Of a stretch of 64,000 bases of DNA, positions 1,749-57,670 are shown piece after piece. The position numbers were made by a program, and so were the translations under genes. The notes under the pieces were generated by a model, which did no database searches, was not told the DNA's origin, and worked only from the letters and a program-made list of their open reading frames with translations. The stretch's first letter is position 1. Each line of letters begins with the position of its first letter. Source of the DNA: Chloroflexota bacterium (GTDB taxonomy: Bacteria; Chloroflexota; Chloroflexia; QHBQ01); the NCBI GenBank assembly GCA_025355955.1, contig JANXYP010000016.1:73-64072 (forward strand), read 5' to 3'.

Positions 1749-1841
1749 ATACTAATTCGTCCAGGCAACGCTATAATTCAGTAGGGGCGAACCGTTGTTC
1801 ACCCTGGCCCAATCAATAGCGTCTCCTTAAATAATTGGTAT
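1749..1841. repeat. ~93-bp palindromic MITE/REP-like element, copy 1 (divergent termini)
   Basis: Termini ATACTAATTCG...AATTGGTAT around the core GTAGGGGCGAACCGTTGTTCACCCTGG. The right end abuts TTA 1841-1843, which is the TAA stop of the minus-strand gene. Confidence 0.6.
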
Positions 1842-2911
1842 TATTCTGCCTGCCGCAGATAGTCCTCCAGCGAGAAGCCGCTGGGATGCACTGCCGTTTC
1901 GTAATAATCAAGCTCATCGGCGACTGCGTAGCCGCATTGCTCATACCGCCGCCGCGAGGACCAATCAGCCTGATCAAGAATCACCGCGATTGGTTCGCCT
2001 GGGTTGGGCGCTTCCTTGCCCAGCCTCAGCTTGTGGGCGGCGAACTGGTAGCCGACCGCCTTGAACTCGTCGAGCGCAGCCCTGATCGTCTCGCCTGCTT
2101 CACCGATGAGCGCGTTTAGACTGACGACATAGCGCAAGCCGAGCACCTGCTCATCAACCAGACCGGGTAGGGCGCGGATTAGCCGTGATCGCACCGCCCG
2201 TTCGCTATAACCGCTAGCGTTCAGGCGAGGGGTTGCGATCTCCACCACATTGTCGGGGTTCGGCTCGTCCCAGCCAATCGCGCCGATAATCTCGCCGTCG
2301 TACTCGGCGTAGAGGTTGGCCTTTGGCGTGTCGGTCGCCACCGCCACGGCGCAGTTATGGGTCAGCGCGTCGTCAGCAGGCAGACCCAGCAACTCGGCCA
2401 ACGCGTCAATGTCGCCGACTACTGCGGCCCGCGTCTCAAAGCGCAGGCGTACAGGGCGGGACAGCGACTTTGCCGCACTGGGCGGGTGCGAAGGTGATGG
2501 CCTTGGTCGTACTGCTTGCGCCCCCAGCATCGCTCTCGCCTGCGCTTCCACCTCATCGAGGGTTAGCGCGTCGGTGGGGATAACCAGGTCGGCATGATCG
2601 CGGGCGTGAGCGAGGCGTTGCTGCTGCGCCTGCCACTCCTGCTCGCTCCAACGTGGGTTGCCACGCCGCTGCCGAAGAGTGTCGAGGCCGACATCGAGGT
2701 AGATGAGATAGTCGGGATTGCTCATCTGCCACATCCCCGGTACGTAGCTATGCTCCTGCGCGGCGGTACGCACGTTGTAACCCTGCCGCCGCAATCGCTC
2801 ACCCAGCGACGATTTGCCACTGGCGCACGGCCCCACGATGGCGATTAGCTGCTTCGGATTCGGGTTTAGTGAAGGGTTGGACATGGGTTGATTATACCAA
2901 ATCAGGCTCAA
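1841..2911 (-). CDS. P-loop kinase-like N-domain fused to an uncharacterised C-domain (possibly GNAT-like)
   Basis: ORF track, 356 aa. Walker A IVGPCASGKSS lies near the N-terminus, and I cannot name a family for the ~200-aa C-terminal region. Met10 (2884) would avoid overlap with the RidA stop. Confidence 0.6.
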   Translation of the reverse strand: MSLIWYNQPMSNPSLNPNPKQLIAIVGPCASGKSSLGERLRRQGYNVRTAAQEHSYVPGMWQMSNPDYLIYLDVGLDTLRQRRGNPRWSEQEWQAQQQRLAHARDHADLVIPTDALTLDEVEAQARAMLGAQAVRPRPSPSHPPSAAKSLSRPVRLRFETRAAVVGDIDALAELLGLPADDALTHNCAVAVATDTPKANLYAEYDGEIIGAIGWDEPNPDNVVEIATPRLNASGYSERAVRSRLIRALPGLVDEQVLGLRYVVSLNALIGEAGETIRAALDEFKAVGYQFAAHKLRLGKEAPNPGEPIAVILDQADWSSRRRYEQCGYAVADELDYYETAVHPSGFSLEDYLRQAE

Positions 2912-3383
2912 ACTCCACGATCATCTCAATCTCCACCGCGATATTCGTCGGTAGCGCGGCCATGCCAACTGCGCTGCGGGCGTGACTACCCCGCTCGTAG
3001 CCGAACACCGCGACCAGCAAGTCGGACGCGCCGTTGATGACCAGCGGCTGCTTGGTAAAGTCGGGCGCGGAGTTGACCATGCCGAACAGTCGGACGATGC
3101 GTCGCACCCGGTCGAGGCTGCCCAACTCACCCTGCATTGTTGCCAGCAGATCCAGGGCCACCAATCGCGCCGCCTCATAGCCCTGCTGCACGTCGAGATC
3201 CTGGCCCAGCTTGCCGTTGACAAAGCTACCGTCAGCTTTGCGCGGGCCATGCCCGCTGACGAACAGCAGGTTGCCGCTCCGCACGCATGGAACGAAGCTC
3301 ATCCCCTGTGGCTGCCACGGCGCAGCCAGGATGATGCCCAACTCTTGCAATCGCGCTGCGATACTGCCACTCTGCTCCTCCAT
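2892..3383 (-). CDS. RidA/YjgF family protein
   Basis: 163 aa. The length and pattern (LLFVSGHGP, ARSAVGMAALP, AVEIEMIVE) match the YjgF/RidA fold family as I remember it. Confidence 0.8.
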   Translation of the reverse strand: MEEQSGSIAARLQELGIILAAPWQPQGMSFVPCVRSGNLLFVSGHGPRKADGSFVNGKLGQDLDVQQGYEAARLVALDLLATMQGELGSLDRVRRIVRLFGMVNSAPDFTKQPLVINGASDLLVAVFGYERGSHARSAVGMAALPTNIAVEIEMIVEFEPDLV

Positions 3384-3431
3384 GTTGCTCCCCCACCCCC
3401 ATCCCCCTCCGAAATGGAGGGAGTGAATGTT

Positions 3432-3525
3432 ATAACAATTACGTTTGGTGCTGCTGTAAATTGAGCTAGGGCGAACAACGGTTCGCCCCTACAGAAAATA
3501 CATTAGCACCACGGCTAATTGGTAT
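3432..3525. repeat. ~93-bp palindromic MITE/REP-like element, copy 2
   Basis: ATAACAATTACG...CTAGGGCGAACAACGGTTCGCCCCTACAG...GGCTAATTGGTAT. The right end abuts TTA 3525-3527, the stop codon of the minus-strand phosphatase gene. Confidence 0.7.
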
Positions 3526-4244
3526 TAATCCCCGAATGGCACTCTCCCGATCATGCGCCGCACTAGCGGACCTTTCTCCGGCGCGGCTTCGGCAATGTGA
3601 ATTACTAGCACGCTCATGTCGTCGTCGGGTCGCATCCGGTCACGGCTGATGGCGATCTTGAGCAAGTGGTCGGCCACTGCCTGAGCATCGGCCCCCTCCT
3701 GCTGCGCGGCGAAGGCTACGATCGGTGGGATACTGAGCGTCTGGTTGTAGTTCTCGCCCGCGTGCAGTAGCCCATCGGTGTATGCTGCGACATACATCCC
3801 CGCCTCCAGCGGCAGGGTGGCGAATGCGGGTGGCGCGACCGTGCCGGTGCCGATGCCGCCTGCCGCCTCATCTAGCAGCCGCACCCCGCTGCTATCGAGA
3901 ACGACGATGGGGCAATCGCTATTGCGCGATACCCGTATCTCGTTTGCCTTGAGGTCGATGGCAATAATCACCAGGCTCGCGGTCACTTTGCCGCCGCGAT
4001 AGGCGTAAAGGTGGTCGTGAGCCAGCAGCGCAACCGCCTCCAGCCGCGCCCCATCCTTGAGCAACGCAATCGCCTTGCCCACTACCATATTGCTGAGGAT
4101 TTTGGCCGCGCCACCGCTGCCCTGGCCGTCGGCCATCACCGCAGCGAAGCCGCCCAGGGGCTGCTCCACGATCTCCACCGTGTCGCCACTCTCGCGCTGG
4201 GCGTACTTGTTGGTCTTGGCAATAGCGATTTGTAGTTCTAGCAT
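3525..4244 (-). CDS. PP2C/SpoIIE-family serine phosphatase
   Basis: 239 aa with a PP2C/SpoIIE-like acidic pattern: GDTVEIV, MADGQGSGG, AAYTDGLLHA, DDMSVLVIHI. Confidence 0.7.
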   Translation of the reverse strand: MLELQIAIAKTNKYAQRESGDTVEIVEQPLGGFAAVMADGQGSGGAAKILSNMVVGKAIALLKDGARLEAVALLAHDHLYAYRGGKVTASLVIIAIDLKANEIRVSRNSDCPIVVLDSSGVRLLDEAAGGIGTGTVAPPAFATLPLEAGMYVAAYTDGLLHAGENYNQTLSIPPIVAFAAQQEGADAQAVADHLLKIAISRDRMRPDDDMSVLVIHIAEAAPEKGPLVRRMIGRVPFGD

Positions 4245-5819: not shown

Positions 5820-6217
5820 CCAGCCATATCCTAACGTGAAGAATCCATACCGACAGGTAAGCCCTTACAGGCTTTCCTGCTCCAAACCGGACATGACTGT
5901 TTCCAGTCACCCGACTTTCCAGAAATGAGATTTTGTTACCATACTGATAAGATGCCCACTTGCCCTTGCGGGCCAGCGCTCAATTCAGGAGCAAGCCCCC
6001 GTCTAATTGCCCCGCTGAAATATGTGATATCTCACGTTCTGTTACTTCTTTCCTGGCAGACCTTCGCCGGTGCTTGATGTGCAGCAGACGGCTAATCGCC
6101 CGTTGGCTGGTGCCTTCAAGGTATATTGCCTCGTGCAAAGTTGCGATTAGCGCGCGCGATCGTAGCCAGCAAGTTTAGGCGCGGGGTAAAGTAACGGTGG
6201 CAAGCTTGACAGCGGTA

Positions 6218-6309
6218 ATACCAATTAGCCAAGAGATGCTATAATTCTGTAGGGGCGAACCGTTGTTCGCCCTGCCTCAATCTATAGCAGCACCATCGCT
6301 AATTGGTAT
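6218..6309. repeat. ~93-bp palindromic MITE/REP-like element, copy 3
   Basis: ATACCAATTAGCC...GCTATAATTCTGTAGGGGCGAACCGTTGTTCGCCCTGCC...CGCTAATTGGTAT. Confidence 0.8.
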
Positions 6310-6447
6310 AACACTGTGAGCCGCTATCGTTGAAGCCGCTCTCGATGACCTGGCGGGGGAGAGGCAGGTAGGGCAAGGGAGATTTGTCATAGCCCGAATT
6401 ATAACATCTGCTCTGCCTTTTTCGCCACTCCTTCCGATCGCTGTTGG

Positions 6448-8766: not shown

Positions 8767-8806
8767 TGCGCTTCGCCAGGGGGGACGCGATTCGCCCGCC
8801 ACACCA

Positions 8807-9004
8807 GCGTTGGTAGTTGCGATGGGCGTTGATGCGCCGCATCAGGGCGGGCCACCGCCCGCCCCTACGCCAGGGTTGGTGGTTACGATAAACATTGATG
8901 CGCTTCACCTGGGCGGGCCACCGCCCGCTCCTACCCCAGGGTTGGTGGTTGCGATGAACGTTGGTGCGCTTCACCTGGGCGGGCCACCGCCCGCCCCTAC
9001 ACCA
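8807..9004. repeat. Tandem repeat, 66 bp x 3, each unit carrying the hairpin GGGCGGGCCACCGCCCGCCCCTAC
   Basis: Units start at about 8807, 8873 and 8939: GGTTGGTRGTTRCGAT...GATGCGCYKCAYCWGGGCGGGCCACCGCCCGCCCCTAC. They lie in the convergent gap between the membrane-protein stop and the nadK stop. Confidence 0.85.
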
Positions 9005-9870: not shown

Positions 9871-10036
9871 TAGATTGCAGATTACAGATTACAGATTACA
9901 GATTACAGATTGCAGATTGCAGATTATCGCTAGCCGAATCAGCCGCACTTGACCACGGTAATGCAATGGAAGATCACACAACCCCCATGCACAATGCGGT
10001 TTACAATCTGCAATCTGCAATCTAAAATCTGCAATT
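9871..10036. repeat. Inverted pair of heptamer arrays: (CAGATTR)x8 at 9871-9926 and (CAATCTG)x~4.5 at 10004-10036
   Basis: The arrays are reverse complements of each other and are separated by 77 nt. The tlyA stop (9939) lies in the loop, and the right array is translated as the tlyA C-terminus. Confidence 0.85.
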
Positions 10037-16571: not shown

Positions 16572-17387
16572 TTGGAGGAACTAATGGCGCTCCTGGAAGC
16601 AAGCAAGATACTGAAGCAGTTTGGCGGCCTCACCGCCGTCAACAAGGTGGATTTCGACATCCCCCAGAACTCAATCGTCAGCTTGATCGGGCCGAATGGC
16701 GCAGGTAAAACCACCCTGTTCAACATCATCACCGGCTTGTATAAGCCTACTGGCGGCAGCATCGTCTTCGACGGCATGAACGTGACCGGCGCACCACCCA
16801 ACCGCATCACCGAAATGGGCGTGGCCCGCACCTTCCAGAACATCCGCCTGTTCGCCAACATGACTGCGTTGGAGAACGTGCTGGTCGGGGCGCACAGCCG
16901 AATGAAGGCGGGTCTGTTCGGTGCCGTCTTCCGCACCCCCGCCACCCGCGCCGAGGAGGCAAGGATGGCTGACCGGGGCATAGAGCTACTTGAGTTCGTC
17001 GGGTTGGCGGGCAAGGAGGAGGAGTACGCCAAGAACCTCCCCTATGGCGACCAGCGTCGCCTGGAGATCGCCCGCGCTCTCGCTAGCGACCCCAAGCTGC
17101 TGCTGCTCGACGAGCCAACCGCCGGTATGAACCCCAACGAAACCCGCGAGATGACTGGCTTCATCGGCCGCCTGCGTAGCGAGCGCGGCCTCTCCATTCT
17201 GCTCATCGAACACGACATGAAGGTGGTAATGGGCATCTCCGATCGCGTGTCGGTGCTGGACTACGGCGTGAAGATTGCCGAAGGCACCCCCGCCGAGATA
17301 CGCAGCAACCCCCGTGTCATCGAGGCCTACCTGGGCAAGGGTGGCGGCAGCCCGATGAAGCAGGACGCGACCCAAGCTGAGTGCTGA
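16572..17387 (+). CDS. livG: Branched-chain amino-acid ABC transporter ATP-binding protein (LivG-type)
   Basis: Walker A GPNGAGKTT, signature YGDQRRLEIARAL and Walker B LLLLDEP. The TGA stop lies inside the (GCTGAGT) array. Confidence 0.9.
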   Translation: MEELMALLEASKILKQFGGLTAVNKVDFDIPQNSIVSLIGPNGAGKTTLFNIITGLYKPTGGSIVFDGMNVTGAPPNRITEMGVARTFQNIRLFANMTALENVLVGAHSRMKAGLFGAVFRTPATRAEEARMADRGIELLEFVGLAGKEEEYAKNLPYGDQRRLEIARALASDPKLLLLDEPTAGMNPNETREMTGFIGRLRSERGLSILLIEHDMKVVMGISDRVSVLDYGVKIAEGTPAEIRSNPRVIEAYLGKGGGSPMKQDATQAEC

Positions 17388-17562
17388 GTGCTGAGTGCTG
17401 AGTGCTGAGTGGCAAAAAGCCCCCAGCGGGGGTTGGGGGAGAACTCTCGAAGCGTTTGAGTGGCAAAAAGCCCCCAGCGGGGGTTTGGGGGGGAACTCTC
17501 GAGCGTTACCATGCTGATTGCAACGACCAACCCACAACTTTCAACTTTCAACTTTCAACTTC
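17376..17562. repeat. Composite repeat spacer: (GCTGAGT)x5, two ~50-bp terminator-like units, then (CAACTTT)x4
   Basis: (GCTGAGT)x5 occupies 17376-17410. GAGTGGCAAAAAGCCCCCAGCGGGGGTTKGGGG..GAACTCTCGA.GCGTT occurs at 17407-17456 and again at 17458-17507. (CAACTTT)x4 occupies 17535-17562. Confidence 0.85.
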
Positions 17563-19450: not shown

Positions 19451-19456
19451 GACAGC

Positions 19457-19477
19457 GCTGAGTGCTGAGTGCTGAGT
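19457..19477. repeat. Heptamer array (GCTGAGT)x3
   Basis: It lies directly after the ldh stop. It is followed at about 19474-19530 by a third, diverged copy of the AAACCCCAGCGGGGTT terminator-like unit. Confidence 0.75.
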
Positions 19478-19578
19478 GATAAGCCTGGGCAAATAAACCC
19501 CAGCGGGGTTGAGGGAGAAGTGCCGACTTACTACCAGGTCGGTTGCTGGCAAATCCGCCGGAACGAAAGGAATTGGCG

Positions 19579-22355: not shown

Positions 22356-22716
22356 AAAGAACTTTCCCTCTCTGAGTTATCTCTCTAAGGAAAAAGTCGC
22401 CCAGGGCAATTCGCTGCTTCAAGGTAGTGGGTGGCCTAACCAGCAAATCAATTGCAAGGTCCGAATCTAGGGCATTCAAAATATCAAGCTCCTGATCGAT
22501 CCAATGCTGCCGCGTATCCATCACCACTAGCAGATCCACATCGCTGTCAGGGCGCGGTGTGCCGTAGGCGTAGGAGCCGAATAGGATGATGCGTTGGGGA
22601 TGGAATAGGTCGGCGATCTGCCGCACCAGGTCATCAATCGCTTCCTGGGGGATGCGATCGCGCTCAGTGATGTCGGCAACGTGGATGGGGAGATGGTTCG
22701 TCTCAGTTGCGGACAT
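22336..22716 (-). CDS. Minimal nucleotidyltransferase (MNT) domain protein, module A
   Basis: 126 aa with the NTase motif ILFGSYAYGTPRPDSDVDLLVVMD. Confidence 0.85.
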   Translation of the reverse strand: MSATETNHLPIHVADITERDRIPQEAIDDLVRQIADLFHPQRIILFGSYAYGTPRPDSDVDLLVVMDTRQHWIDQELDILNALDSDLAIDLLVRPPTTLKQRIALGDFFLREITQRGKVLYEQPNR

Positions 22717-22769: not shown

Positions 22770-22965
22770 GGGCGTACGTCCAGTTGAGTGTGCATCACGT
22801 TCTTGTAAGGCAAACGCCGGTAGGTGCAAACCGTTATTCGCTCTGATCGGGTATGCAAAAACAAGAGCGTACCTTCATTTGGAAGCGCGCCCTCTGTGTT
22901 CGTGATTGGTAATATACCGCTGGCAGGGATGCTGTATAATGGGGAGTGAGTAGCCGCGCCCCTCA

Positions 22966-23436: not shown

Positions 23437-23491
23437 GAATAAGCTGGGCGATGATTAGATGCTTACTTTTACCAACTTGCGCCTTTATCTA

Positions 23492-23584
23492 ATACCAAAT
23501 AGCCGCAGCAATGCTATAGTTCAGTAGGGGCGAACCGTTGTTCGCCCTGGCTCAATCTATAGCGGCACCATCGCTAATTGGTAT
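23492..23584. repeat. ~93-bp palindromic MITE/REP-like element, copy 4
   Basis: ATACCAAATAGCCGCAGCAATGCTATAGTTCAGTAGGGGCGAACCGTTGTTCGCCCTGGCTCAATCTATAGCGGCACCATCGCTAATTGGTAT, in the convergent gap. Confidence 0.85.
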
Positions 23585-23607
23585 AACGTTTTTGGCACGT
23601 CACGTCA

Positions 23608-24741
23608 TCAGCGCGAAGAAATGAAGCTGCCCAGCCAGTTGCGGATATCATCGCCCAGTACGCCCAGCCAGTAGGTAAGGTTGTCGAGCGGCAGGGTGCG
23701 CCACAATTGGTCGCGCAGCAACAGGGCGCAGATGGCGGCGAAGCAGAACGATGCGCCCACCGGGACGTAGTCGTGCATCCGTTTGGCCCGCACCAAGACC
23801 AGCATCAGACCGATCAGTCCGGCAATTAGCGGGCCGAGCAGCAGCGGGCCAAGGATGGTGGGATACCCTAGCATCAGACCGAGCATAACCGCCAGTTCGA
23901 CATCGCCGAAGGCGAGCGCTTCCGATTCACCGCCATAGACTAGACGGGCGATGAAGTAGAAGAATAGTAGCGTGCCACCACCCACCGCTCCACCCAGCAG
24001 TGCGGAAGACAAACCCACCTCAGGGCTGAACAACGCGCCCAGCAGGGCTAGTGCCGCGCCCGCCAGCAACACGATGGTGTAGAGGTCGTGGTGCTGCCAA
24101 TCAATCGTTAGGGTAACAATCAGCACCAGGGTGAAGATTGAGTAAATAAAGAACAGAGGGCCGAGGCCATAATCAATCCAGGCAGCGGCAAGCGCAAGGC
24201 CAGTGCCAAGCTCGATTATCGGGAAGGAGAGCGGCAGCCGCTTGCCACAGTGGCGGCAACGCCCGCGTTGCCCCAGCCAGCCAAGCAGCGGCACGCTGTC
24301 GCCCCAACCCAGCGGTTCGCCACTGCGGGTGCAGCGCAGGGTTGAGTTTTGAGTTTTGAGTTTTGAGTTTTGAGTTATAGGGAACGGTGGCGCTTCTTCC
24401 TGTATCCCTACTGCCTGCTCCACCATTGCTGATTGCGATACTGCATCCGTAGGGGCGGGCGGTGGCCCGCCCTGCTCCACCACTGCTGGTTGGGGAATGG
24501 CATCGGTAGGGGCGGGTGGTGGCCCGCCCTGCTCCGCCCCTGCTGACTGTGGAATGGCATCCGTAAGTGCGGGCAGTGGCCCGCCCTGCTGCATAGGGGC
24601 GATTATTTGTTCGCCCTGCTTGGAGGGCGTATCAGGAACAGGCCACAGCCGGGGCAGGCGATAGATGATGACGTTGAGTAGCCCGCCCAACGCTACCCCG
24701 GCAATGAAAGCAAGCATGAACAATAGCGCACCCCATACCAA
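23608..24741 (-). CDS. pilD: Prepilin peptidase (A24 family) with repeat-derived insertions in the N-terminal loop
   Basis: 377 aa. The catalytic Asp contexts are IDWQHHDLY and FGDVELAVMLG. A Cys-rich segment (RGRCRHCGKRLP) and at least 6 TM segments are present. About 100 extra residues follow TM1. Confidence 0.85.
   Translation of the reverse strand: MVWGALLFMLAFIAGVALGGLLNVIIYRLPRLWPVPDTPSKQGEQIIAPMQQGGPLPALTDAIPQSAGAEQGGPPPAPTDAIPQPAVVEQGGPPPAPTDAVSQSAMVEQAVGIQEEAPPFPITQNSKLKTQNSTLRCTRSGEPLGWGDSVPLLGWLGQRGRCRHCGKRLPLSFPIIELGTGLALAAAWIDYGLGPLFFIYSIFTLVLIVTLTIDWQHHDLYTIVLLAGAALALLGALFSPEVGLSSALLGGAVGGGTLLFFYFIARLVYGGESEALAFGDVELAVMLGLMLGYPTILGPLLLGPLIAGLIGLMLVLVRAKRMHDYVPVGASFCFAAICALLLRDQLWRTLPLDNLTYWLGVLGDDIRNWLGSFISSR
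24341..24375. repeat. Heptamer array (TTTGAGT)x5 inside the pilD CDS
   Basis: GTTGAGT TTTGAGT x4, translated on the minus strand as TQNSKLKTQNS. Confidence 0.85.
24418..24588. repeat. 57-bp x 3 in-frame tandem repeat inside pilD carrying the GTAGGGGCGGGCGGTGGCCCGCCC hairpin
   Basis: The encoded 19-aa repeats are QGGPLPALTDAIPQSAGAE, QGGPPPAPTDAIPQPAVVE and QGGPPPAPTDAVSQSAMVE. The same hairpin motif occurs in the intergenic 66-bp repeats at 8807-9004. Confidence 0.85.
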
Positions 24742-24788
24742 TGCTGAGGTTTGAGCGCTGAGTGTTGAGGTTGCCCAGCTCGCCCCTT

Positions 24789-24881
24789 ATACCAATTAGT
24801 GGTGATGCCACTATAGATTGAGGCAGGGCGAACAACGGTTCGCCCATACTGAACTATAGCAACGCCTCGGCTATTTGGTAT
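24789..24881. repeat. ~93-bp palindromic MITE/REP-like element, copy 5 (opposite orientation)
   Basis: ATACCAATTAGTGG...GGCAGGGCGAACAACGGTTCGCCCATACTGAACTATAGC...GGCTATTTGGTAT. Confidence 0.85.
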
Positions 24882-24884
24882 TAT

Positions 24885-24908
24885 AACTCAAAACTCAAAG
24901 CTCAAAAC
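24885..24908. repeat. Heptamer array (AACTCAA)x~3.5, complement of the array inside pilD
   Basis: AACTCAAAACTCAAAGCTCAAAAC lies between the aroE stop and the pilD 5' region. A degenerate array also occurs at 24744-24772. Confidence 0.7.
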
Positions 24909-24911
24909 CCA

Positions 24912-25904: not shown

Positions 25905-26027
25905 GTCCCGCCTCTGGTTCTGCTAAGAAAGTTATACCACTTCGCTGTCGCGCTGCAATAAAACAGATGAGCGCGATAAATCTGCAACCCTAACGATAAT
26001 CCACTATCTCTTCGGCGTATTAGTATT

Positions 26028-26120
26028 ATACCAATACGCTACGGCGCTGCGATAAACTGGGCCAGGTCGAACATCGGTTCGCTCCTAAGAAATTGTCGCA
26101 ACACCATAGCAAATTAGTAT
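26028..26120. repeat. ~93-bp palindromic element, copy 6 (degenerate)
   Basis: ATACCAATACGC...GGCCAGGTCGAACATCGGTTCGCTCC...AAATTAGTAT. It is followed by a solo hairpin GGGGGCGAACTGCGGTTCGCCTGCC at 26128-26152. Confidence 0.55.
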
Positions 26121-26182
26121 TACACGCGGGGGCGAACTGCGGTTCGCCTGCCACTAACCGTTCTGCCTTCCACCTTCTGCTG

Positions 26183-27334: not shown

Positions 27335-27368
27335 GCTAATCTAACTGATCTCCCCTCTTACTAACCTT

Positions 27369-27462
27369 ATACCAAATAGCTTTGGCGCTAGCGAAAATTG
27401 GGCCAGGGTGAACAACGGCTCGCCTCTACAGAAAATACACCCTATGCTCGGCTAATTGGTAT
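27369..27462. repeat. ~93-bp palindromic MITE/REP-like element, copy 7
   Basis: ATACCAAATAGC...GGCCAGGGTGAACAACGGCTCGCCTCTACAG...GGCTAATTGGTAT. Confidence 0.8.
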
Positions 27463-27666
27463 TACTTTAAGGCAGGGTGAAAGCTCCCACCGCTGCAAGT
27501 GCGGCAACACGCCCTATTTTATCAGAGGCAAGGGCGTTGCGTCAATGTGAATCGGGGCAACCGTTGCTCGCCTCTACCACCCTCCTACATGGGTTTGTGC
27601 TGCTAGGGAGCGAATAATTGCGCCCTGGCCGACTTTGCAGCAACCCTATTATTACCAGCTCCGCGC

Positions 27667-32412: not shown

Positions 32413-32578
32413 TAAGCGATGGCGTGCAAGATTAGCGGGGGTCTGCGTCACGTTCTTGCCGAGCAAGCGCCCAGTAGGGGCAAACCGTTGTTCGCCCTGG
32501 TCCAATTTGTACTGCTGCTGGACACAAAGGTATAAACTCGTGTACCGCTACTGTGAACAGTTACCTTTAGGCCCGACT

Positions 32579-38223: not shown

Positions 38224-41061
38224 CTAAACCTCGCCCAGGAAGTGCGCGTTGGGGGCAATGTCCATGGCCCAGTCGGAGGTGTCGGCGCGGTCGCGGGCTG
38301 CGCCCTGGGCATGGTAATAGCGATAATAGGCGGCTGCGCCGATCATGGCGGCATTATCAGTGCAGAGCGCCATTGGGGGGTAGATCAGCGGCACTTTGAG
38401 CCGCTCACCCATCATCTCGCGCAGCAGGCGATTGGCGGCCACGCCACCTGCTAGCACCACCATCCGTGCGCCATACTGCTCGGCTGCTGCTGCTGTCTTT
38501 TCCACCAGCACCTCGACCACCGCCAGTTGGAAGGCGGCGGCAATCAAAGCCACCGGCGCATGACCTTTCTTGTCAGAGCCAGCACCAGCACCAACACTGC
38601 CGCGTACCCCCGGTGAGCGGGGCGCGTCTGCACCTAGCGAACGGTTGCGGCGGGAACGGTCATCATCGCCCGGCTCGTCCTCATCGTCGGCGGCGCTACC
38701 GACGCGGCTGCGAGGCGTATCGTCTTCCTCATTGTCAATATAGTCGCGCTCGTCGCGGTCATCGTCATCCGCGCTGCTGCCTTTCGGCACGGGTATTATC
38801 TCGCGCTGGGCAAGGGGTGCGCTGCGCTGAGGCAATTGGCCGGGGCGGGTATAGGTGCCGCGCTGCGACTGCGAGGGCGGCAGAGGGCGGGGCCGATTCA
38901 ACGGTGGTGGGGCGCTGGATGTTGCCGACGGTTGCTGGGCTGGCGACTGAACAGGCCGCTGCTGGGCGGGCGGTTGCTGGGTGGTACGCGACTGGGCGGG
39001 CGGTTGCTGGGTCGGTCGCTGCGATGCGGGCGGTTGCTGGGTCGGTCGCTGCGGTGCGGGCTGGTTGGGCCGTTGCTGCGGCGGTTGCTGGGTGGGGCGT
39101 TGTGGTGCCGGTTCGCTGCCCAGCACCGTGCTGCGGGGATAGATGTTGCCGCCACTCTGCGGTGCTGGTGGTTGTACCACTGGCTGGCCGGGCCGTTGCT
39201 GGGCTGGTGGATTAGGCTGAGGAGTAGGCGGTTGTGGCTGTGAACGCTGGTCAGTGGTGGGCGGATGCATAGCTCGACCCTGCGGCGATAGTGTGCGCGG
39301 CAGCGATTGTTCGTCCTCGTCCTCGTCCTCATCGTCTGCCTGTGGCGCGGTGCGGGGGTCGGGCGTAGGTACAGTGCGGAGTGGGCGGCGCTCCAGGCCG
39401 GGGCCAGTTACTGCCCCCGGTGGCGCAGGCTGCGGTGAACTGGCCGCAGTGGTGGTGGGCTGGTGCGGTGGATTAGCAGTGGCTGCTGGGGTAGCGATCT
39501 CCACCCCATCCTCATCGTCGAACATCGAATAAATAGCGCGGGGGCGCGGCGCGGCCTGGCGCAAGGGGCGACGCTCCAACGCGGGACTAATGGGGGTGGC
39601 GCTTACTGGCGGTTGCACATTGCCATTTTCGTTCTCGTCCCCCTCGTCGTCGTCATCATCACCCTCTTCATCATCATCAGCGGTTTCGTTGGCATCGCGT
39701 ACGAACAGGCTGGCGAGGCGGTCACGCGGCGGTTGTGGGCCGAGGCGGAAGCTCGGCTCCGGCGCGACTTCATCCCCATCATCGTCGGCTTCGACCGCTG
39801 GCGCAGGTGGCAGCGTTGTGGCGCGAGGTGGATTGGCCGGTCGCACTGGCTGGGCAGGCGCGATGCTGGGAGCGGGTGGTACGATGGTGCGGGCGGGAGG
39901 AGTTGGTGGATCGGCCGGTTGCGTTGCAAGTTCTGCGGGTCGAGTCAGGCGGGCAGGCGGTTGGAAGCCACGCGCTTGCGGTTGGCGCGTAGGTTGGTCG
40001 GCGGGGGCAGGCATCGCCAGCGGTTCGCTCACCATTGCAGTAGGCGACTGGCCGGGGCGCACACTGTTGCTATCGCTGGTGGCCTCGCGCCCGGCGGCAT
40101 CGCTACGCTGCTGCGCGGCCTCGACCTCGGCGAATGGGCGCGGCTTATCTACCACTGGCAACCCGCCATACTCGTCAATCTTACGCATCACCGCCGTCTT
40201 CAGCCCGCTGAAGCTGAAGTCGTAGGTGCCGCGCAGCCAGGCGCGAGGCAGGTCAATCTTGCGCGGGTCGACGGGTTCGGCATCGACCAGCTTCTGAATC
40301 GCCGGGCCGCCAGGGTAGCCGAGGCCGAGGATGCGTCCCACCTTGTCGAACGCCTCACCCGCCGCATCATCAATCGTCTTGCCCAGCAGTTCGTACAGCC
40401 CATGCCCGCGCATCAGGATCAGTTCGGTATGCCCGCCCGACACCACCAGAGCAACAATGGGGAACTGCGGTTCTGGTGGTATAGCGACTCCCTCCCCGAT
40501 CTTAGGGGAGGGTTGGGGAGGGGGCGCGGGTTTTGGCACAGGCTCACCCACTGGACGATAGACCGGCGCGGATTGCTCGTAAGCGGCGCGGTACTGGCGG
40601 CTGGACGGCTCCTCGCTATTTATGTCCGACTCCTCAGCGTCGGCGCTGGTGGGCAATTCGGCAACGACCGGCTTGGGCTTGGCAGCGCTATTGGGGATGA
40701 GCCAGTTAGCGTAGATATGGCCCTCGAGGTGGTTGACTGGCAGCAGCGGCTTGCCCAGGGCAAACGCCAGCCCTTTCGCCACGTTGACCCCCACCAGCAA
40801 CGCGCCCGCCAGCCCTGGTCCGTTAGTCACGGCGATGGCATCAATATCGCGCCAGGTGAGGCTCGCTTCCTTCAGCGCAGCTTCCAGGGTTGGCACGATG
40901 TAGAGGATGTGCTGGCGGCTGGCAAGCTCAGGCACGACTCCACCCCAACGCTTGTGCAGCTCGATCTGCGAAGCGACCACGTTGGTGAGGATGCGGCGGC
41001 CATCCTGGATGATTGCCGCCGAGGTTTCGTCACATGAAGTTTCAAAGGCGAGGATGTTCAT
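38224..41061 (-). CDS. tsaD: tRNA N6-adenosine threonylcarbamoyltransferase TsaD interrupted by two large low-complexity insertions (945 aa)
   Basis: The N-terminal part reads [50 protein letters not shown]. The C-terminal part reads [13 protein letters not shown]...CTDNAAMIG. It is one continuous ORF. The inserts cover about residues 124-198 and 300-833. Confidence 0.88.
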
Positions 41062-48536: not shown

Positions 48537-49222
48537 TGTTGGCCTCGTTGCTCCTCAATCATCTTGAGGAAGTAGGCGTGGAAGCGGGTGTCCGCAGTAA
48601 GCTCAGGGTGGAAGGCACTGACCAGCAGGTTGCGTTGCCGTGCCGCCACAATCGGCGCATCCCCCTGGGCCAGGGTTGCCAGCACCTCCACGTCCCTGCC
48701 CACGCTCTCGATGTACGGGGCGCGGATGAAGATCATAGGGAAGGGCGGCTCACCCAGCGTGGGGATGAGCGCGGATGTCTCGAAACTATCAATTGCCCTG
48801 CCAAAGGCGTTGCGCCGCACCTTCACGTCCATTACCCCAAACAGGCTTTGCGGCTGGCCCTCGATCAGTGCGGCAGTGTCGCCAATGTCGCGGGAGAGCA
48901 TGATCATACCAGCGCAGGTGCCGTAAATGGGCAGCCCCTGCTGCGCCAGCGCAGCAATCGGCCCCTTCAGCCCATAAAGCTCGGCCAACTTGCCAATCGC
49001 GGTGCTTTCGCCGCCGGGGATGATCAACCCATCAATCCCCGCCAGTTGCAGCGGCTGGCGCACCTCGACTGTCGCCACCCCCAGCCGCTGCAGCATTGCA
49101 ATATGCTCGGCAAAGTCGCCTTGCAGGGCCAGCACGCCGACCCGGAGTGCTGAGTGCTGAGTGCTGAGTGCTGAGTCTTGCGGTTCAGCTATCTTCTGCT
49201 GCCTGATCTGCTGATTGGTCAT
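48533..49222 (-). CDS. pdxT: Pyridoxal 5'-phosphate synthase glutaminase subunit PdxT
   Basis: VGVLALQGDFAEH, the catalytic GTCAG and the C-terminal FHPE. The ATG at 49222 follows GGAG. The ~25-aa N-terminal extension translates the heptamer array (DSALSTQHSAL). Confidence 0.85.
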   Translation of the reverse strand: MTNQQIRQQKIAEPQDSALSTQHSALRVGVLALQGDFAEHIAMLQRLGVATVEVRQPLQLAGIDGLIIPGGESTAIGKLAELYGLKGPIAALAQQGLPIYGTCAGMIMLSRDIGDTAALIEGQPQSLFGVMDVKVRRNAFGRAIDSFETSALIPTLGEPPFPMIFIRAPYIESVGRDVEVLATLAQGDAPIVAARQRNLLVSAFHPELTADTRFHAYFLKMIEEQRGQH

Positions 49223-50373: not shown

Positions 50374-51177
50374 ATGGCAAGCAGCAATATAATGCTGGAA
50401 GGGGCTGTATATGTTCCACCCTTCAACCAGCGTGAGCGCATCCCCAAAGAGGCGGTTGACTTCCTCGTGCGACAAATTGCCGAGCAGTTCCACCCTGAGC
50501 GCATCATCCTGTTCGGCTCCTATGCCTACGGCACTCCCGACCCAGAGAGCGATGTGAATCTGCTAGTGGTGATGGATACGCCGACCAATGAGTTTGAGCA
50601 AGCGTCGCACATTAAACACTCAATCAAGCGCAGTTTCGAGCTTGACCTGCTGCTACGAACTCCTGACAACCTTGCCCGCCGCATTGCTCTGGGTGACTTC
50701 TTCCTTAGAGATATCGTGCAAAAGGGCAGCGCTCTATACGGGCCTCCCGTGCGTGAGGGCGAATATGCAATTGACCTGGAATCGGATGCTGCTGCCGAGC
50801 TAAACCCGCTAACCGCTGAGTGGATAGAGAGGGCTGAAAGCCACTACGTTAGTATGGAGATTTTGGCTCAGGCACTCAAGAGCTATGACCACATCTGCTT
50901 TTACGCGCAGTTGAGCGCTGAGGCGTATCTGAAAGCCTATCTACAGGAACATAAGATATACTTTCCAAAGACGTATGACTTCTCTTATTTGCTGCAGCTT
51001 TGTCTAACAAGCGATGCCGAGTTCGAGACAATACGCTCTCCTTTGCAGCAGTTCACCCAGGATGATGCTGAGAATTATGTCTACCCCGGCTACTGGGCAG
51101 ATGCATCCGAGGCTAATGCTTTGTCCAAAGCGGCAGCCTCTATCCGCAATTTGCTCCGCGCCAAACTGGGTCTCTGA
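50374..51177 (+). CDS. Fused nucleotidyltransferase (MNT)-HEPN protein, module B
   Basis: The N-half carries ILFGSYAYGTPDPESDVNLLVVMD. The C-half carries AEAYLKAYLQEH...YVYPGYW...IRNLLRAKLG. Both halves are paralogous to the split modules A and C. Confidence 0.8.
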   Translation: MASSNIMLEGAVYVPPFNQRERIPKEAVDFLVRQIAEQFHPERIILFGSYAYGTPDPESDVNLLVVMDTPTNEFEQASHIKHSIKRSFELDLLLRTPDNLARRIALGDFFLRDIVQKGSALYGPPVREGEYAIDLESDAAAELNPLTAEWIERAESHYVSMEILAQALKSYDHICFYAQLSAEAYLKAYLQEHKIYFPKTYDFSYLLQLCLTSDAEFETIRSPLQQFTQDDAENYVYPGYWADASEANALSKAAASIRNLLRAKLGL

Positions 51178-52194: not shown

Positions 52195-52572
52195 ATGACC
52201 ATGACCAACACGGAGTATCAAGGAGTCTATATACCCCCTGTCGTCGAGCGTGAGCGCATTCCCCAGGAGGCGATTGACGATGTGGTGCGTCAGATTGTCG
52301 AGCAGTTCGACCCTGAGCGCATCATTCTGTTCGGCTCATATGCCTATGGCACGCCACGCCCAGACAGCGATGTGGATCTGCTGGTGGTGATGAACACTCC
52401 ACTTCGAGAGGTGCAGCAGGAGATTGCCATTCAACGTACACTTCGGAGGCACTTTCCTTTGGATTTGCTGGTACGTAAACCTGATTATCTTGCAAGGCGC
52501 ATCGCGATCGGTGATCCTTTCCTTCAAGAGATTACGCGGCGAGGTATTGTGCTATATGCACGAAATAACTAA
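52195..52572 (+). CDS. Minimal nucleotidyltransferase (MNT) domain protein, module C
   Basis: ILFGSYAYGTPRPDSDVDLLVVMN. The ATG at 52195 follows AAGGAG. Confidence 0.85.
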   Translation: MTMTNTEYQGVYIPPVVERERIPQEAIDDVVRQIVEQFDPERIILFGSYAYGTPRPDSDVDLLVVMNTPLREVQQEIAIQRTLRRHFPLDLLVRKPDYLARRIAIGDPFLQEITRRGIVLYARNN

Positions 52573-54104: not shown

Positions 54105-56120
54105 ATGATTGACCTAACCCTATCAGCCGCAGAACTGAGCAAACAAGGCATCGCCGCCGCCCGCGCCGGACGCAACGACGAGGCCCGCGAGTACCTGGTC
54201 GCCGCCGTCGAAGCCAACGAGCGCAACGAACCGGCATGGCTCTGGCTGGGCGGGGTAATGACCGAACTAGAAGATAAGATTGTCTGCCTGGAAAACGCGC
54301 TTACCCTCAACCCCGCCAACGAACCCGCCGCCCGCAAGCTGCAGCAATTGCAGCTCAAGCGCGAGATGCAGAAACCCGAGGCAACCCCCCTCCCCAGCCC
54401 TCCCCTAACTACGGGGAGGGAGTCTGCCTCCCTCCCCCGCCCTCCCCCAACTACGGGGAGGGAGTCTGCCTCCCTTCCCAGCCCATCCCTAACTACGGTG
54501 AGGGAGTCAACCCCGCCTGCGTCAGCAACCCAGGATTTGTATCTGAACAGCTCGGCGGCAACACAGGGCTTGCCAGCGCCACCGCTGGGTGCATTGCCCT
54601 GGGATCACCTGGTTATTCCCTTCAGTAGTGGCGACACCAGTTCGCTTCGCTCACCGGGCGACCCTAATCCAGGCGCGACCCTATCCCGCCCACCACTTAG
54701 CGGGAACGAGTACGACTCCGCTGCACCCTTCACTGGCTATCGCAGTGGCGGCTACGATGATACGGGCAACGATGGAGACTGGCTGCAGCCCGGCACCCAG
54801 CATATGCCTACCAATCCCGACTATAGCCCTGGCCGGCGGGCTGATCTGCCTGGGCCGGACGATCAGCCCGGCGGCTACCCTGAGCAACGCGACGCTAGCG
54901 AGTGGCAGCAACCCGATCGCGGTTATCACGGCGATACCAGCGCAAGCGCATGGGTCAACCCATTTGCCTCCGTTGCGGAAACCAATGGCTATAGTCCTTA
55001 CAACTCTAGCCAGGATGCGCCTGCTCCCCTCCACGATACGCAGCGCTACTCAGGTGCGGCCTTGAACTCCGACTTCAACCCCCTGACCGAGCAACTCGAA
55101 CACGATGAGCGCTTCGACTGCCCTTACTGCGGCTGGCAAACTCGGGTAGAAGATCAGCGTTGCCCCAACTGCAGCGGTGATCTCTACATTTATGCCAGCG
55201 CCAACGAAAAGCGTTCTAGCGCCCTCGTGCGCGTGGTTCTGCTGTGGGTGGTTCGCGCCCTTAGGTCGGCGGTTGGCCTGGGTCTGGCGATCTTTACGGC
55301 AGAGGTAGTGAAGCAGCAGATGCAAAAGGTGAGTGTCAGCCTGGATACTTCGACGATCGCTCATTATGGCCTAACCCCTGGGGAGATCAATGCGGTCACG
55401 CAGCAACGGGAAACCTCCATCGCTATCTACTATGGCGTAGTCATCGGCATCGCCATCATCATGGCGATTGGCTCGTGGTCGCGGATGCGGATATTCTATC
55501 GGATTAACATCGCAGTAATTATACTGACCGGGTTCGCTTCATTCCTCAGCTATGTGTTTGACCCGGTTAAAAGCCCTACCAACCTGATTATTGATGTGGT
55601 AATTTTGTTTGCCCAGTTTCTGTCAATCGTACGCGCCGAGCCTGACTTCATCAATCAGAAGCAGCGCATCGTGGAGCCGAACTATCACGGTGAGGTCAGC
55701 GCCCTCGGCTTCTTCAACCTGGGAACGCAGTTTCAAAAGGCGGGCTACACCGCACTGGCAGCCAAAGCGTGGCAGCGTTCGGTGTCAATGGGTCCTAGTG
55801 ATGGTCGCACTCGCGCCGCCCTGGCGATGGCCTACACTCGGATGAAGCGCTACGATTTGGCGGTGGAGCAGCTCAATGAAGCGTTGAAGATAGACCCGCA
55901 TGATACCCGTGCTATGAATCTGATGGCAATCTCACAAATGCGTGCTGGCAACTACGATGAGGCCCGTAGCTATGTCGCCGCCGCGCTCGAAGCCAAGCCT
56001 AATGATCCCGATACCCTTGATAACCAGAAGCAAATCGAGGATGAAATCAAGAAGGCGGCCAGCAAGCCGCCGACCAAGCCAGCCGTGCCGAAGCAGAACA
56101 CCAAGAAAGCAGTTGGCTAA
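54105..56120 (+). CDS. TPR-repeat membrane protein with a zinc ribbon and repeat-derived low-complexity region
   Basis: 671 aa. It has an N-terminal TPR, the zinc ribbon CPYCGWQTRVEDQRCPNCSG, ~4 TM segments and C-terminal TPRs. A tandem 14-aa repeat region is also present. Confidence 0.7.
   Translation: MIDLTLSAAELSKQGIAAARAGRNDEAREYLVAAVEANERNEPAWLWLGGVMTELEDKIVCLENALTLNPANEPAARKLQQLQLKREMQKPEATPLPSPPLTTGRESASLPRPPPTTGRESASLPSPSLTTVRESTPPASATQDLYLNSSAATQGLPAPPLGALPWDHLVIPFSSGDTSSLRSPGDPNPGATLSRPPLSGNEYDSAAPFTGYRSGGYDDTGNDGDWLQPGTQHMPTNPDYSPGRRADLPGPDDQPGGYPEQRDASEWQQPDRGYHGDTSASAWVNPFASVAETNGYSPYNSSQDAPAPLHDTQRYSGAALNSDFNPLTEQLEHDERFDCPYCGWQTRVEDQRCPNCSGDLYIYASANEKRSSALVRVVLLWVVRALRSAVGLGLAIFTAEVVKQQMQKVSVSLDTSTIAHYGLTPGEINAVTQQRETSIAIYYGVVIGIAIIMAIGSWSRMRIFYRINIAVIILTGFASFLSYVFDPVKSPTNLIIDVVILFAQFLSIVRAEPDFINQKQRIVEPNYHGEVSALGFFNLGTQFQKAGYTALAAKAWQRSVSMGPSDGRTRAALAMAYTRMKRYDLAVEQLNEALKIDPHDTRAMNLMAISQMRAGNYDEARSYVAAALEAKPNDPDTLDNQKQIEDEIKKAASKPPTKPAVPKQNTKKAVG
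54392..54512. repeat. 42-bp x ~3 in-frame tandem repeat (CCTCCCC..GGGGAGGG hairpin family) inside the TPR gene
   Basis: AACTACGGGGAGGGAGTCTGCCTCCC recurs at 54407, 54449 and 54491. The encoded peptide is PPLTTGRESASLPR/PPPTTGRESASLPS/PSLTTVRES. Confidence 0.8.
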
Positions 56121-56195: not shown

Positions 56196-56699
56196 ATGAC
56201 TATTCGACACCAGGAACCAGTTGCCAGCCACGAGCTTGACCTGATCAGTCACAGCGTGGAGCAGACGCGACGCATCGGCGCACGGCTGGCCGCGCTGTTG
56301 CGGGAGGGCGATGTGCTGCTGCTGGAGGGGCAACTCGGCGCGGGCAAGACGGCGTTTACCCAGGGGGTAGCGGCAGGCCTCGGCATCCACGACTACGTCA
56401 ACAGCCCTACCTTCGTACTGGTCAACGAATATCCTTCGGTTCTGCCGCTCTATCATATCGACCTCTACCGTCTTGACGACCCCCGCCAGGCAATTGACAT
56501 CGGCATCGAGGATTATATTGGTGGCGACGGCGTAACCGTAATCGAGTGGCCGGAGCGCGGCGGCGAGTTCATGCCTGAAGAGCGGCTACTCATCCGTCTC
56601 ACCTACTTGAGTGAAACCAAGCGCACCATTCGCATAAGCGCGGTAGGCCGCCGCTACACTACCCTGCTCAACCAGTTCAAGCAGGATGCTTTCGCCTAA
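56196..56699 (+). CDS. tsaE: tRNA t6A biosynthesis ATPase TsaE
   Basis: LLLEGQLGAGKTAFTQG is the Walker A motif, and SPTFVLVNEY is also present. The ATG at 56196 is preferred over the ORF-track start at 56145. Confidence 0.85.
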   Translation: MTIRHQEPVASHELDLISHSVEQTRRIGARLAALLREGDVLLLEGQLGAGKTAFTQGVAAGLGIHDYVNSPTFVLVNEYPSVLPLYHIDLYRLDDPRQAIDIGIEDYIGGDGVTVIEWPERGGEFMPEERLLIRLTYLSETKRTIRISAVGRRYTTLLNQFKQDAFA

Positions 56700-56860
56700 A
56701 ATGAAACCCCGCCCCTTTTTGTGAGCACTGGAGTCTAAAAACCCCTTCTCCCCTTTTGTGAGCGTTAGAGTCTAAAACCCCTCCCCCTTGCGGGAGAGGC
56801 TGGGTGAGGGGTAATCAGGCATCGCACGAAGGCTACTCGAAACTACGGAGGCTACTCGGC

Positions 56861-57565
56861 ATGACCATGCTAGCGATAGACACCGCCACTGATAACGCCA
56901 GCGTCGCGCTTTACAGCACTGTGGGAGTGGTCGCCGAGCAAACCTGGCGGGCGCACCGCGAACAAACCGCCCAGCTTGTGCCGGTGATGCAATCGCTGAT
57001 GCACTACGTCGGTCTTACGCCGGGCGAACTGTCAGCAGTGGCCTGCGCGGTGGGGCCGGGTAGCTTCAACGGCCTGCGGGTTGGCCTTAGCACCGCGAAG
57101 GCGGTGGCGACCGCCCTCAGTATTCCCCTCTACGGCCTCAGCAACCTCGACAGTCTTGCCTATCAGCACGCCGATATCAGCACGCGCTTGACGGTGTGGG
57201 CAGTGGTGATGATCGGGCGCGAACGGTTGGCTACCGCAAGCTATCGCACCACCACCCCACGCGGCGGCAATCCCGAATGGCGGCGCACCAGCGACTACCG
57301 CAACGTCAGCGTTAGTGAGCTATCCGACCTGCTCACCAGCCCCGCTTACGTGGTCGGCGAACTGAACCCCACCATGGTGCAGGAAATCGAGTCGCGGGCG
57401 GGTGATCTAGTCACGATCGCGCCGCCCGCCGCTGCCTTGCGTCGCGCTGCCTACATCGCCGAACTAGCCTGGCGGCGCAAGCAGCGTGGCGACCTCGGCG
57501 ACGACATCGCCGATCTGCAGGCTATCTACCTTGCCTCGCCCGCGCCTTCCGCCCCGCGTTCGTAA
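56861..57565 (+). CDS. tsaB: tRNA t6A biosynthesis protein TsaB
   Basis: MTMLAIDTATDNASVALY and GPGSFNGLRVGLSTAKA. The ATG at 56861 is preferred over the ORF-track start at 56804. Confidence 0.85.
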   Translation: MTMLAIDTATDNASVALYSTVGVVAEQTWRAHREQTAQLVPVMQSLMHYVGLTPGELSAVACAVGPGSFNGLRVGLSTAKAVATALSIPLYGLSNLDSLAYQHADISTRLTVWAVVMIGRERLATASYRTTTPRGGNPEWRRTSDYRNVSVSELSDLLTSPAYVVGELNPTMVQEIESRAGDLVTIAPPAAALRRAAYIAELAWRRKQRGDLGDDIADLQAIYLASPAPSAPRS

Positions 57566-57576
57566 ACTCCTTTCTC

Positions 57577-57670
57577 ATACCGATTAGCCGAGCAGATAGT
57601 ATAAATTGGGCCAGGGCGAACAACGGTTCGCCCCTACAGAAATTATAGCGGCACCACGGCTAATTGGTAT
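57577..57670. repeat. ~93-bp palindromic MITE/REP-like element, copy 8
   Basis: ATACCGATTAGCCG...GGCCAGGGCGAACAACGGTTCGCCCCTACAG...GGCTAATTGGTAT, in the convergent gap. Confidence 0.85.

Follow-up and report, generated by a model that had tools for sequence, protein, structure and literature searches.

The 64,000-nucleotide stretch of DNA analysed here (the window) is contig C319:73-64072 of G000, a draft metagenome-assembled genome of an uncultured member of the Chloroflexia (5.15 Mb, 420 contigs, 59% GC, completeness 84%, contamination 3.5%). The window carries eight full copies of a 91-92-bp hairpin-forming repeat that very probably represents a bona fide MITE family (MITE, miniature inverted-repeat transposable element), which stems from, and is most likely moved by, an insertion sequence (IS) of the IS630 family. 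The family has terminal inverted repeats (TIRs) and a 3-bp target-site duplication (TSD), sites that are filled in G000 are empty in a congeneric genome, and G000 also contains an IS630-family element whose ends match and whose TSD is the same. An earlier note on this DNA, made from the sequence of the window, had suggested a non-autonomous mobile element with TIRs, and the duplication, the empty sites and the partner IS all bear this out.

The repeat family and its target sites

Copy number was surveyed with an nhmmer profile built from the eight window copies and run against G000, counting non-overlapping loci at E<1e-3. All eight full copies of about 93 bp that the earlier note had located were found again over their full length, at 1748-1842, 3430-3527, 6216-6311, 23490-23586, 24787-24883, 26026-26122, 27367-27464 and 57575-57671, together with a half copy at 32472-32535. 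The eight align end to end (8/8) and, once the asymmetric loop in the central hairpin is used to orient them, yield a clean consensus. They are far from being the only copies: the profile matches 703 loci in G000, a number far beyond chance, of which 256 are full-length, 147 contain one end, 72 are otherwise partial and 228 are core-only matches spanning just the central ~30 nt of the profile. All 703 loci together occupy 46.8 kb, or 0.9% of G000, and the nine matches per 64 kb in the window equal the genome-wide density. The full MITE is confined to the genus of the window, in which the IS described below is also found, with first-look candidate counts of 644 in G000, 298 in G002 and 47 in G001, the latter two being the congeneric genomes used for comparison.

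The copies and related sequences in the window, with the bounds of each element and its TSD, are as follows.

1747..1843, minus strand: MITE copy, more diverged; element 1750-1840, TSD TTA at 1747-1749 and 1841-1843 (plus strand)
3430..3527, plus strand: MITE copy; element 3433-3524, TSD TTA/TTA
6216..6311, minus strand: MITE copy, subfamily A; element 6219-6308, TSD TAA/TAA
23490..23586, minus strand: MITE copy, subfamily A; element 23493-23583, TSD TAA/TAA, convergent genes on either side
24787..24883, plus strand: MITE copy, subfamily A; element 24790-24880, TSD TTA/TTA
26026..26122, plus strand: MITE copy, degenerate; element 26029-26119, TSD TTA/TTA
27367..27464, plus strand: MITE copy, divergent variant; element 27370-27461, TSD TTA/TTA
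57575..57672, plus strand: MITE copy, young subfamily B; element 57578-57669, TSD TCA/TCA
32472..32535, minus strand: chimeric half copy, a MITE left arm that continues, from the core on, as the right half of a second palindromic family (…GCTTGCTCGGCAAGAACGTGACGC)
22818..22857, no strand: degenerate core in a member of another family, with arms CACGTTCTTG…CAAGAGCGT; not this MITE
27553..27585, no strand: isolated core hairpin GGGGCAACCGTTGCTCGCCTCTAC, degenerate and lacking the MITE arms

The copy at 23490..23586 is one of the two top-scoring copies in G000. The three core-only or truncated copies that had been described are all present, but not all belong to this family: the one near 22820-22855 is a member of a different core-sharing family, that at 32466-32533 is half MITE and half derived from that different family, and that at 27553-27585 is a solo degenerate core.

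Flanks were scored on 102 precisely bounded copies. In 74 of them, against 36.6 expected from the marginals, the triplet to the left of TACC…GGTA is the same as that to its right, the matching pairs being TAA/TAA (38 copies), TTA/TTA (30), TGA/TGA (4) and TCA/TCA (2). The 'T(W)…(W)A' termini that the earlier note had assigned to the element are instead a 3-bp target-site duplication. If the TIR were longer, or if TA were duplicated around ATACC…GGTAT, a left-hand TAA should be paired with a right-hand TTA; this inverted pair occurs 4 times and its mirror image 5 times, only 9 of the 102 copies in all. Nor can a TA duplication give rise to the TGA/TGA and TCA/TCA pairs, the latter exemplified by the copy at 57575..57672. 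Reconstruction of the target yields a palindrome, W-S(T-W/N-A)S-W with the duplicated bases in parentheses, which has G or C at position -1 in 87% of sites and at position +3 in 85%.

A comparison of filled and empty sites, as the earlier note had proposed, was possible for part of the window. Synteny with the 23.5-27.6 kb region, with identities of 77-92%, is seen in contig C180 of G002, where three of the four MITE copies of that region are missing. Each of these three sites has a single TAA or TTA, the triplet that is present twice around the window copy.

Copy 23490-23586, empty site in C180 of G002: …CCTTATTC-TAA-CATTTTAGG…, single TAA
Copy 24787-24883, empty site in C180 of G002: …CGCT-TTA-CAACTCAA…, single TTA
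Copy 27367-27464, empty site in C180 of G002: …CTCGC-TTA-CTGTAAGG…, single TTA

The fourth spacer, containing the copy at 26026..26122, has no alignable orthologous sequence in G002. The first two copies of the window are also missing in relatives, where their spacers are otherwise changed too: the copy at 1747..1843 is missing from the orthologous spacer of G001, and that at 3430..3527 from both G001 and G002, in which the genes to either side of it share an ATGA overlap. Of the five window copies that could be compared, none (0/5) is common to a congener, and relatives do not carry the element at these positions. In G000 the right-hand TSD of each of the first two copies doubles as a stop codon, that of the predicted gene 1841..2911(-), read as TAA from the minus strand, and that of the predicted gene 3525..4244(-), respectively.

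The anatomy of the MITE was derived from 92 aligned, precisely bounded copies. Between its TSDs the unit measures 91-92 bp and reads TACCAATTAGC…GCTAATTGGTA, with these TIRs conserved in at least 90% of the aligned copies. It is non-coding: the sequence is a hairpin without an open reading frame (ORF), the consensus folding into a structure of ~92 nt at -38 to -48 kcal/mol (z = -5.9 to -7.4 relative to shuffles), and an Rfam search at the window positions gave no match. The centre, which had been taken for a perfect palindrome, is instead an 8-bp stem GGGCGAAC/GTTCGCCC around the 4-nt loop AACG, flanked by CCA… and …CTAC. Since the loop is asymmetric the core has an orientation, and on the opposite strand it forms a GC hairpin headed by GTAG. 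Two subfamilies are resolved, A with 40 copies at a mean pairwise distance of 11% and B with 39 copies at 5%; subfamily B is the younger of the two, given its lower distance and several identical copies, which point to recent activity, and differs from subfamily A in that its core is flipped with respect to the two non-identical arms. A few elements carry the MITE arms around other hairpins. Head-to-tail runs of two or three full MITEs, with one TNA triplet common to neighbours, are seen at C63:1059-1342, C65:2-229 and C47:6202-6387, which suggests that new copies have repeatedly entered the duplicated target next to one already in place.

An IS630-family partner

The earlier note had reported no transposase in the window, and this holds for its whole contig, which contains no DDE_Tnp_1, DDE_3 or Y1 match. 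It had also proposed a search for an autonomous IS630/Tc1-like element, and such a partner was found by scanning G000 for the 11-nt terminus outside MITE matches. The scan returned two recurrent classes, both of which run into contig ends, where a repeat that breaks the assembly would be expected to lie. In class 1 (C181, C186) the 5' end of the IS is followed by the ribosome-binding site (RBS) and start codon of an ORF; in class 2 (C227, C304) the 3' end of the IS is followed by 927 bp common to both at 94% identity. Combined, they describe an IS of ~1.12 kb. Full copies are found in the two congeners, one of 1121 bp (G001:C322) with a visible TTA as its left flank and the end of the contig on the other side, and one of 1107 bp (G002:C158) flanked by TTA/TTA. 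The length of 1107-1121 bp in the genus, with short TIRs, falls within the IS630 range of 1.0-1.4 kb. The partner is not of the TA-target type that had been expected of an IS630 element: its duplication is TNA, 3 bp.

The IS has two ORFs. ORF-A matches the Pfam helix-turn-helix (HTH) families HTH_33, HTH_32 and HTH_23 (HTH_33 E 3e-13) and ORF-B matches DDE_3 (E 1.8e-10). The two overlap at a TGG-A5-6-G4-7 run (W-K-K-G-G) that fits the slippery pattern X XXY YYZ (A AAG GGG) and is conserved in IS copies of Chloroflexia, Dehalococcoidia, Ardenticatenaceae and Meiothermus; the same frameshift-prone run is seen at C227, C304 and G001:C322 (example sequence TGGAAAAAGGGGGGC), and in the copy on G001:C552 an extra base fuses the ORFs naturally in frame. 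The conceptual product of a -1 frameshift is 351 aa long and scores 167.8 bits against NCBIfam NF033545 'IS630 family transposase' (cut-off 100), while a PDB sequence search with this fused transposase returned no significant match.

The ends of the IS and of the MITE agree closely. Over the first 11 nt the IS ends differ from all four MITE arm types at no more than 2 positions, and most of the first ~30 nt agree, the left arm of the MITE being like the 3' end of the IS and the right arm like its 5' end. The TATAAT-like box that had been noticed in one arm is indeed present, as GCTATA(A/G)T, and derives from the IS ends; the outward promoter activity held conceivable for it does not find support. 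The box at the 5' end of the IS has the sequence TGCTATAAT, lies ~25 nt upstream of the RBS of the transposase gene and points inward. It is therefore probably a promoter of the IS itself and not one directed outward, and none of the four window copies at 23.3-27.7 kb was recognised as a promoter of sigma-70 type.

We propose that the MITE is a 91-92-bp deletion-type derivative of the ~1.12-kb IS, in which the outer ~30-35 bp of both ends, presumed binding sites of the N-terminal HTH domains of the transposase, are kept and ~1.05 kb of the interior is replaced by the ~27-bp GTAG-headed GC hairpin, a core resembling repetitive extragenic palindromic (REP) sequences. The transposase, its HTH and DDE_3 parts putatively joined by a -1 frameshift at the conserved A5-6G4-7 run, would act on the MITE in trans. 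By analogy with IS630/Tc1-mariner transposases, the element would presumably be excised and then integrated at the palindromic target W-S(T-N-A)S-W, where a 3-nt staggered cut would duplicate T-N-A, mostly as TAA or TTA. Purifying selection would then remove genic insertions and leave copies in spacers, preferentially those between convergent genes.

The 3-bp duplication extends beyond the genus. A profile scan of GTDB species genomes with a four-sequence ORF-B alignment returned 79 loci (a single ORF-B query returned none), one of them in the congener G001 and many of them multi-copy elements in long-read Dehalococcoidia chromosomes. Copy-to-copy comparison defines the ends of the Dehalococcoidia IS as TACC(A/G)TT(T/C)C…G(A/G)AA(T/C)GGTA and its length as 1165-1171 bp; identical 3-bp flanks are present in 40 of the 44 copies with both ends (19.5 expected), namely TAA in 23, TTA in 15, TCA in 1 and TGA in 1. 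Related elements occur on plasmids. An IS of Meiothermus taiwanensis WR-220, 43% identical and with the same frameshift motif, reads TAA-TACCAAATC…GAGTTGGTA-TAA, and one on an IncP plasmid of Aeromonas caviae, 28% identical and with a single-ORF transposase, reads TGA-TACCAATC…GATTGGTA-TGA. By sequence the partner branch thus belongs to IS630, while it does not duplicate the TA dinucleotide. Members of the family are described as duplicating TA (ISY100, PMC2170065), and a table in PMC6352166 lists a direct repeat of 2 for IS630. A literature search for IS630 elements with a 3-bp or TNA duplication, ISfinder being outside its scope, found no description of one.

Two other kinds of candidate were considered as autonomous elements or additional IS ends and set aside. 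Pairs of MITE termini 0.13-4 kb apart proved to be neighbouring or nested MITEs of no consistent length. A ~330-bp repeat, with ~80% identity over four copies (C221:9086(-), C183:37079(+), C399:4987(-) and C174:377(-)), starts with an IS630/MITE-like terminus, (TNA)TACCAAT…GCTATAGTTCTGAT, and continues with unrelated common sequence; it is not a further IS end class but a separate repeat with one IS630-like end, and may be a longer non-autonomous relative.

Genomic context, rival explanations and the shared core

Several observations weigh against descent from, and mobilisation by, the IS630-family element. Identical flanks are lacking in 28/102 MITE copies, which is consistent with decay or recombination. 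The link between transposase and MITE is drawn from common termini, the TSD and co-occurrence, and no transposition was observed. The IS copies of G000 are broken at contig ends, so that an intact copy (C227 plus C181/C186) is plausible, and the copy on C304 has additional frameshifts. The central core of the MITE is absent from the IS. Finally, a TA duplication is what published work uses to define the IS630 family (PMC2170065; PMC6352166), and it is not seen here.

Genomic context was assessed for the 256 full copies on a gene map of self-trained codon-bias calls (3911 genes, 84% coding). Intergenic copies number 239, a further 7 overlap a gene call by under half their length, and 10 by more than half, nine of the latter lying in the outer 5% of the predicted ORF and one at 14%. 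The description of the family as strictly intergenic therefore stands, the copies with the larger overlaps all being near a predicted gene end. Target availability does not account for this bias, since 71.5% of the 18,708 S-TWA-S sites in G000 used as background lie in coding sequence and no MITE copy lies in a gene interior. Selection against genic insertions would be the simplest cause. Spacers between convergent genes are enriched in MITEs (62 vs 37 expected by spacer length, chi-square p = 4e-5), and one TSD triplet is the stop codon of a neighbour (TAA or TGA) in 12/102 copies, about 6% being expected; as T-N-A includes TAA and TGA, an insertion on a stop codon regenerates the stop.

The same observations could be read in favour of a host-maintained structural element, kept by selection to terminate transcription, to stabilise mRNA 3' ends, to act as an outward promoter or to bind a protein. 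The stability of the hairpin is very high, copies accumulate between convergent genes and abut stop codons, and one IS-derived arm carries TGCTATAAT/TATAGT boxes. Yet no testable window copy is present at the orthologous site of a congener, orientation relative to the flanking genes is unbiased (65:54, p = 0.36), there is no 3'-side preference in tandem spacers (62:56), and the enrichment in tail-to-tail spacers is also predicted by selection against harmful insertions. There is no Rfam match at the window copies, and consensus scans of the four copies at 23.3-27.7 kb detected no sigma-70-type promoter, no intrinsic terminator and no T-run after the hairpin. With neither promoter or terminator consensus, nor orientation bias, nor orthologous conservation, the host RNA role that the earlier note had held equally possible is unsupported, and we regard selection for a host function as a highly improbable origin of the family.

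A TNA duplication is also the hallmark of other, classical families, and the repeat could be a MITE of the IS5 family (IS1031/IS427 group) or of PIF/Harbinger type, which duplicate TNA or TWA. IS5-family transposases are present in G000. Searches of G000 with PF13586, PF01609 and PF13359, and inspection of C211, returned either unrelated ends or no match: there is no DDE_Tnp_4 (PF13359) gene, the IS5-family element on C211 has the unrelated ends AGGACTAAGAAACTATCTCAAAAG, and it is the IS630-family element that carries the MITE's own termini and the same TSD. These findings contradict the assignment, which is extremely improbable.

The remaining alternative starts from the core. In this reading the 92-nt hairpin would be a unit resembling a REP doublet (REPIN, REP doublet forming a hairpin), copied on single-stranded hairpins by a REP-associated tyrosine transposase (RAYT, of the IS200-like Y1 type). 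Only the core, GTAGGGGCGAACCGTTGTTCGCCC, has the GTAG/GTGG head and GC-rich imperfect palindrome of classical REPs. The exact core 20-mer occurs 442 times in G000, 165 times near a MITE terminus and 277 times without one nearby, in the latter case as solitary cores, in tandem arrays or within palindromic elements whose arms differ. Furthermore, the core variant GGGCGAAC-CTTGT-GTTCGCCC forms inverted doublets in the REPIN layout (GTAG-hairpin…~20 nt…hairpin-CTAC) at L014, L015, L017 and L022 in G031, G038 and G025, genomes of another family of the same order from which the MITE is absent, and Y1 transposase genes are common in the order (28/40 genomes). What decides against this origin for the whole unit is that Y1 transposition proceeds without target duplication, whereas the MITE has a direct 3-bp TSD and clean empty sites, and that its arms match IS630 ends and not REP sequence. 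No Y1/RAYT gene (PF01797) was found in G000, which is 84% complete, and the Y1 genes of four relatives (including G002, G025 and G038) have no core within 1.5 kb; a RAYT was on these grounds rejected as the mobiliser of the core. A REP/REPIN origin is accordingly very unlikely for the MITE, and may apply to the core alone.

The core is older and more widespread than the MITE, because its variant is found in genomes of the same order that lack the MITE and because it also occurs outside MITEs. That it is an independent REP-type module for which IS630-driven MITE transposition became the main vehicle of spread in this lineage, in which no RAYT is seen, is a possibility that we consider unlikely. 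Families may also have recombined with one another at the shared core, of which the chimera at 32472-32535 and the flipped core that sets subfamilies A and B apart would be examples. Two other core-bearing arm types exist, GTGCGCGTCACGTTCTTGC…GCAAGAACGTGACGCGCAC and AGAAAGTGTCTGAAAAG…CTTTTCAGACACTTTCT. The family with the former arms is represented in the window at 22818-22857 and 32472-32535, and elsewhere in G000 at C4:3878, C19:28893 and C20:6305.

The window contains further repeats. A second GC hairpin, CAGGGCGGGCCACCGCCCGCCCCTAC, occurs in tandem arrays at 8801-9004 and 24414-24593 (66 nt x3 and 57 nt x3), the 57-nt array, whose period is a multiple of 3, lying within the predicted gene 23608..24741(-). 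A third hairpin variant with a CTAC tail, GGGCGTGATTTATCACGCC, forms two tandem 47-nt units at 30602-30695. Tandem heptamers, (GAGTGCT)n, (CTGCAAT)n and (GAGTTTT)n, are found in the spacers, several directly adjoining MITEs, at 17365-17410, 19453-19484 and 49145-49190; 9888-10036 and 30702-30749; and 24344-24375 and 24882-24916. A repeat of ~150-176 nt unrelated to the MITE is present at 22512-22665, 50407-50582 and 52225-52400 (two direct at 80%, one inverted at 81%), and a C/G-run hairpin, CCCTCCCC…GGGGAGGG, forms a 42-nt x3 tandem array at 54378-54508, with an inverted solo copy 14 kb away at 40486-40524.

Relation to known systems and significance

RUP of Streptococcus pneumoniae, which has been reported to insert at TA and was reportedly attributed to IS630-Spn1 by Oggioni and Claverys in 1999, resembles the present MITE: it is ~100 bp long, non-coding and hairpin-forming, its ends are like those of an IS630-family IS of the same genome, and its many intergenic copies are presumed to be mobilised in trans. 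Unlike RUP, this MITE duplicates TNA, reaches a several-fold higher copy number (256 full copies), has at its centre a GTAG-headed REP-like hairpin that is common to other families, and resides in uncultured Chloroflexia. RUP is described as a ~107-bp MITE attributed to IS630-Spn1, and Correia/NEMIS of Neisseria as a MITE of ~104-157 bp (PMC3184786). The latter are likewise hairpin MITEs that abound in intergenic regions, have TIRs and short duplications of AT type, and can lie near gene ends; the present family differs in having an identified parent IS and in that no expression effect is shown for it. Promoter, terminator and RNase III effects are documented for Correia elements, which are not known to have an identified parent IS.

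REP and REPIN sequences are reportedly mobilised by RAYTs, as is said to follow from the work of Nunvar in 2010 and of Bertels and Rainey in 2011. The likeness of the present family to them lies in the GTAG head and GC-rich stem-loop of its core and in the inverted doublets of related genomes; unlike them, the 92-bp unit has IS630-type TIRs and a TSD, and no RAYT was found in G000. Like PIF/Harbinger, the IS1031 group of IS5 and TBE1, the present family duplicates 3 bp, and its target is short, palindromic and AT-centred, while PIF/Harbinger and IS5 belong to different transposase families that were tested and not found as partner here. TBE1 of Oxytricha is a member of the IS630-Tc1 superfamily with a 3-bp ANT duplication, and thus a precedent for a 3-nt stagger in the superfamily, but it is eukaryotic and ANT-targeting. 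The partner IS shares with ISY100-type IS630 elements (PMC2170065) a length of 1.1-1.2 kb, short TIRs, two N-terminal HTH motifs and DDE_3, and differs from them in its TNA duplication (3 bp), its split by a conserved -1 frameshift motif and its TACCAA-type ends. The cyanobacterial MITE Nezha/ISNpu3, considered as a relative, has a direct repeat of 10 bp (PMC6042816) and is unrelated.

The family is therefore a known kind of element, ordinary selfish DNA, and what is non-standard about it is the TNA duplication, the shared REP-like core and the high copy number. In G000, matches to the MITE and its core are to be masked or annotated as mobile DNA and not as regulatory RNA. These repeats mark recent insertions that differ between congeners, and are probably one cause of the fragmented assembly. 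More broadly, 102 MITE and 44 IS copies make a well-populated case for one branch of IS630/Tc1-mariner elements integrating with a 3-nt stagger at T-N-A, a branch with TACCAA-type ends that is found in Chloroflexota and, as single copies, on Meiothermus and Aeromonas plasmids. The choice of TA targets in the superfamily is understood structurally from the Mos1 target-capture complex (PMC5481204), and a natural 3-nt variant with a cultivable host, Meiothermus taiwanensis WR-220, would provide a direct comparison to TA capture by Mos1.

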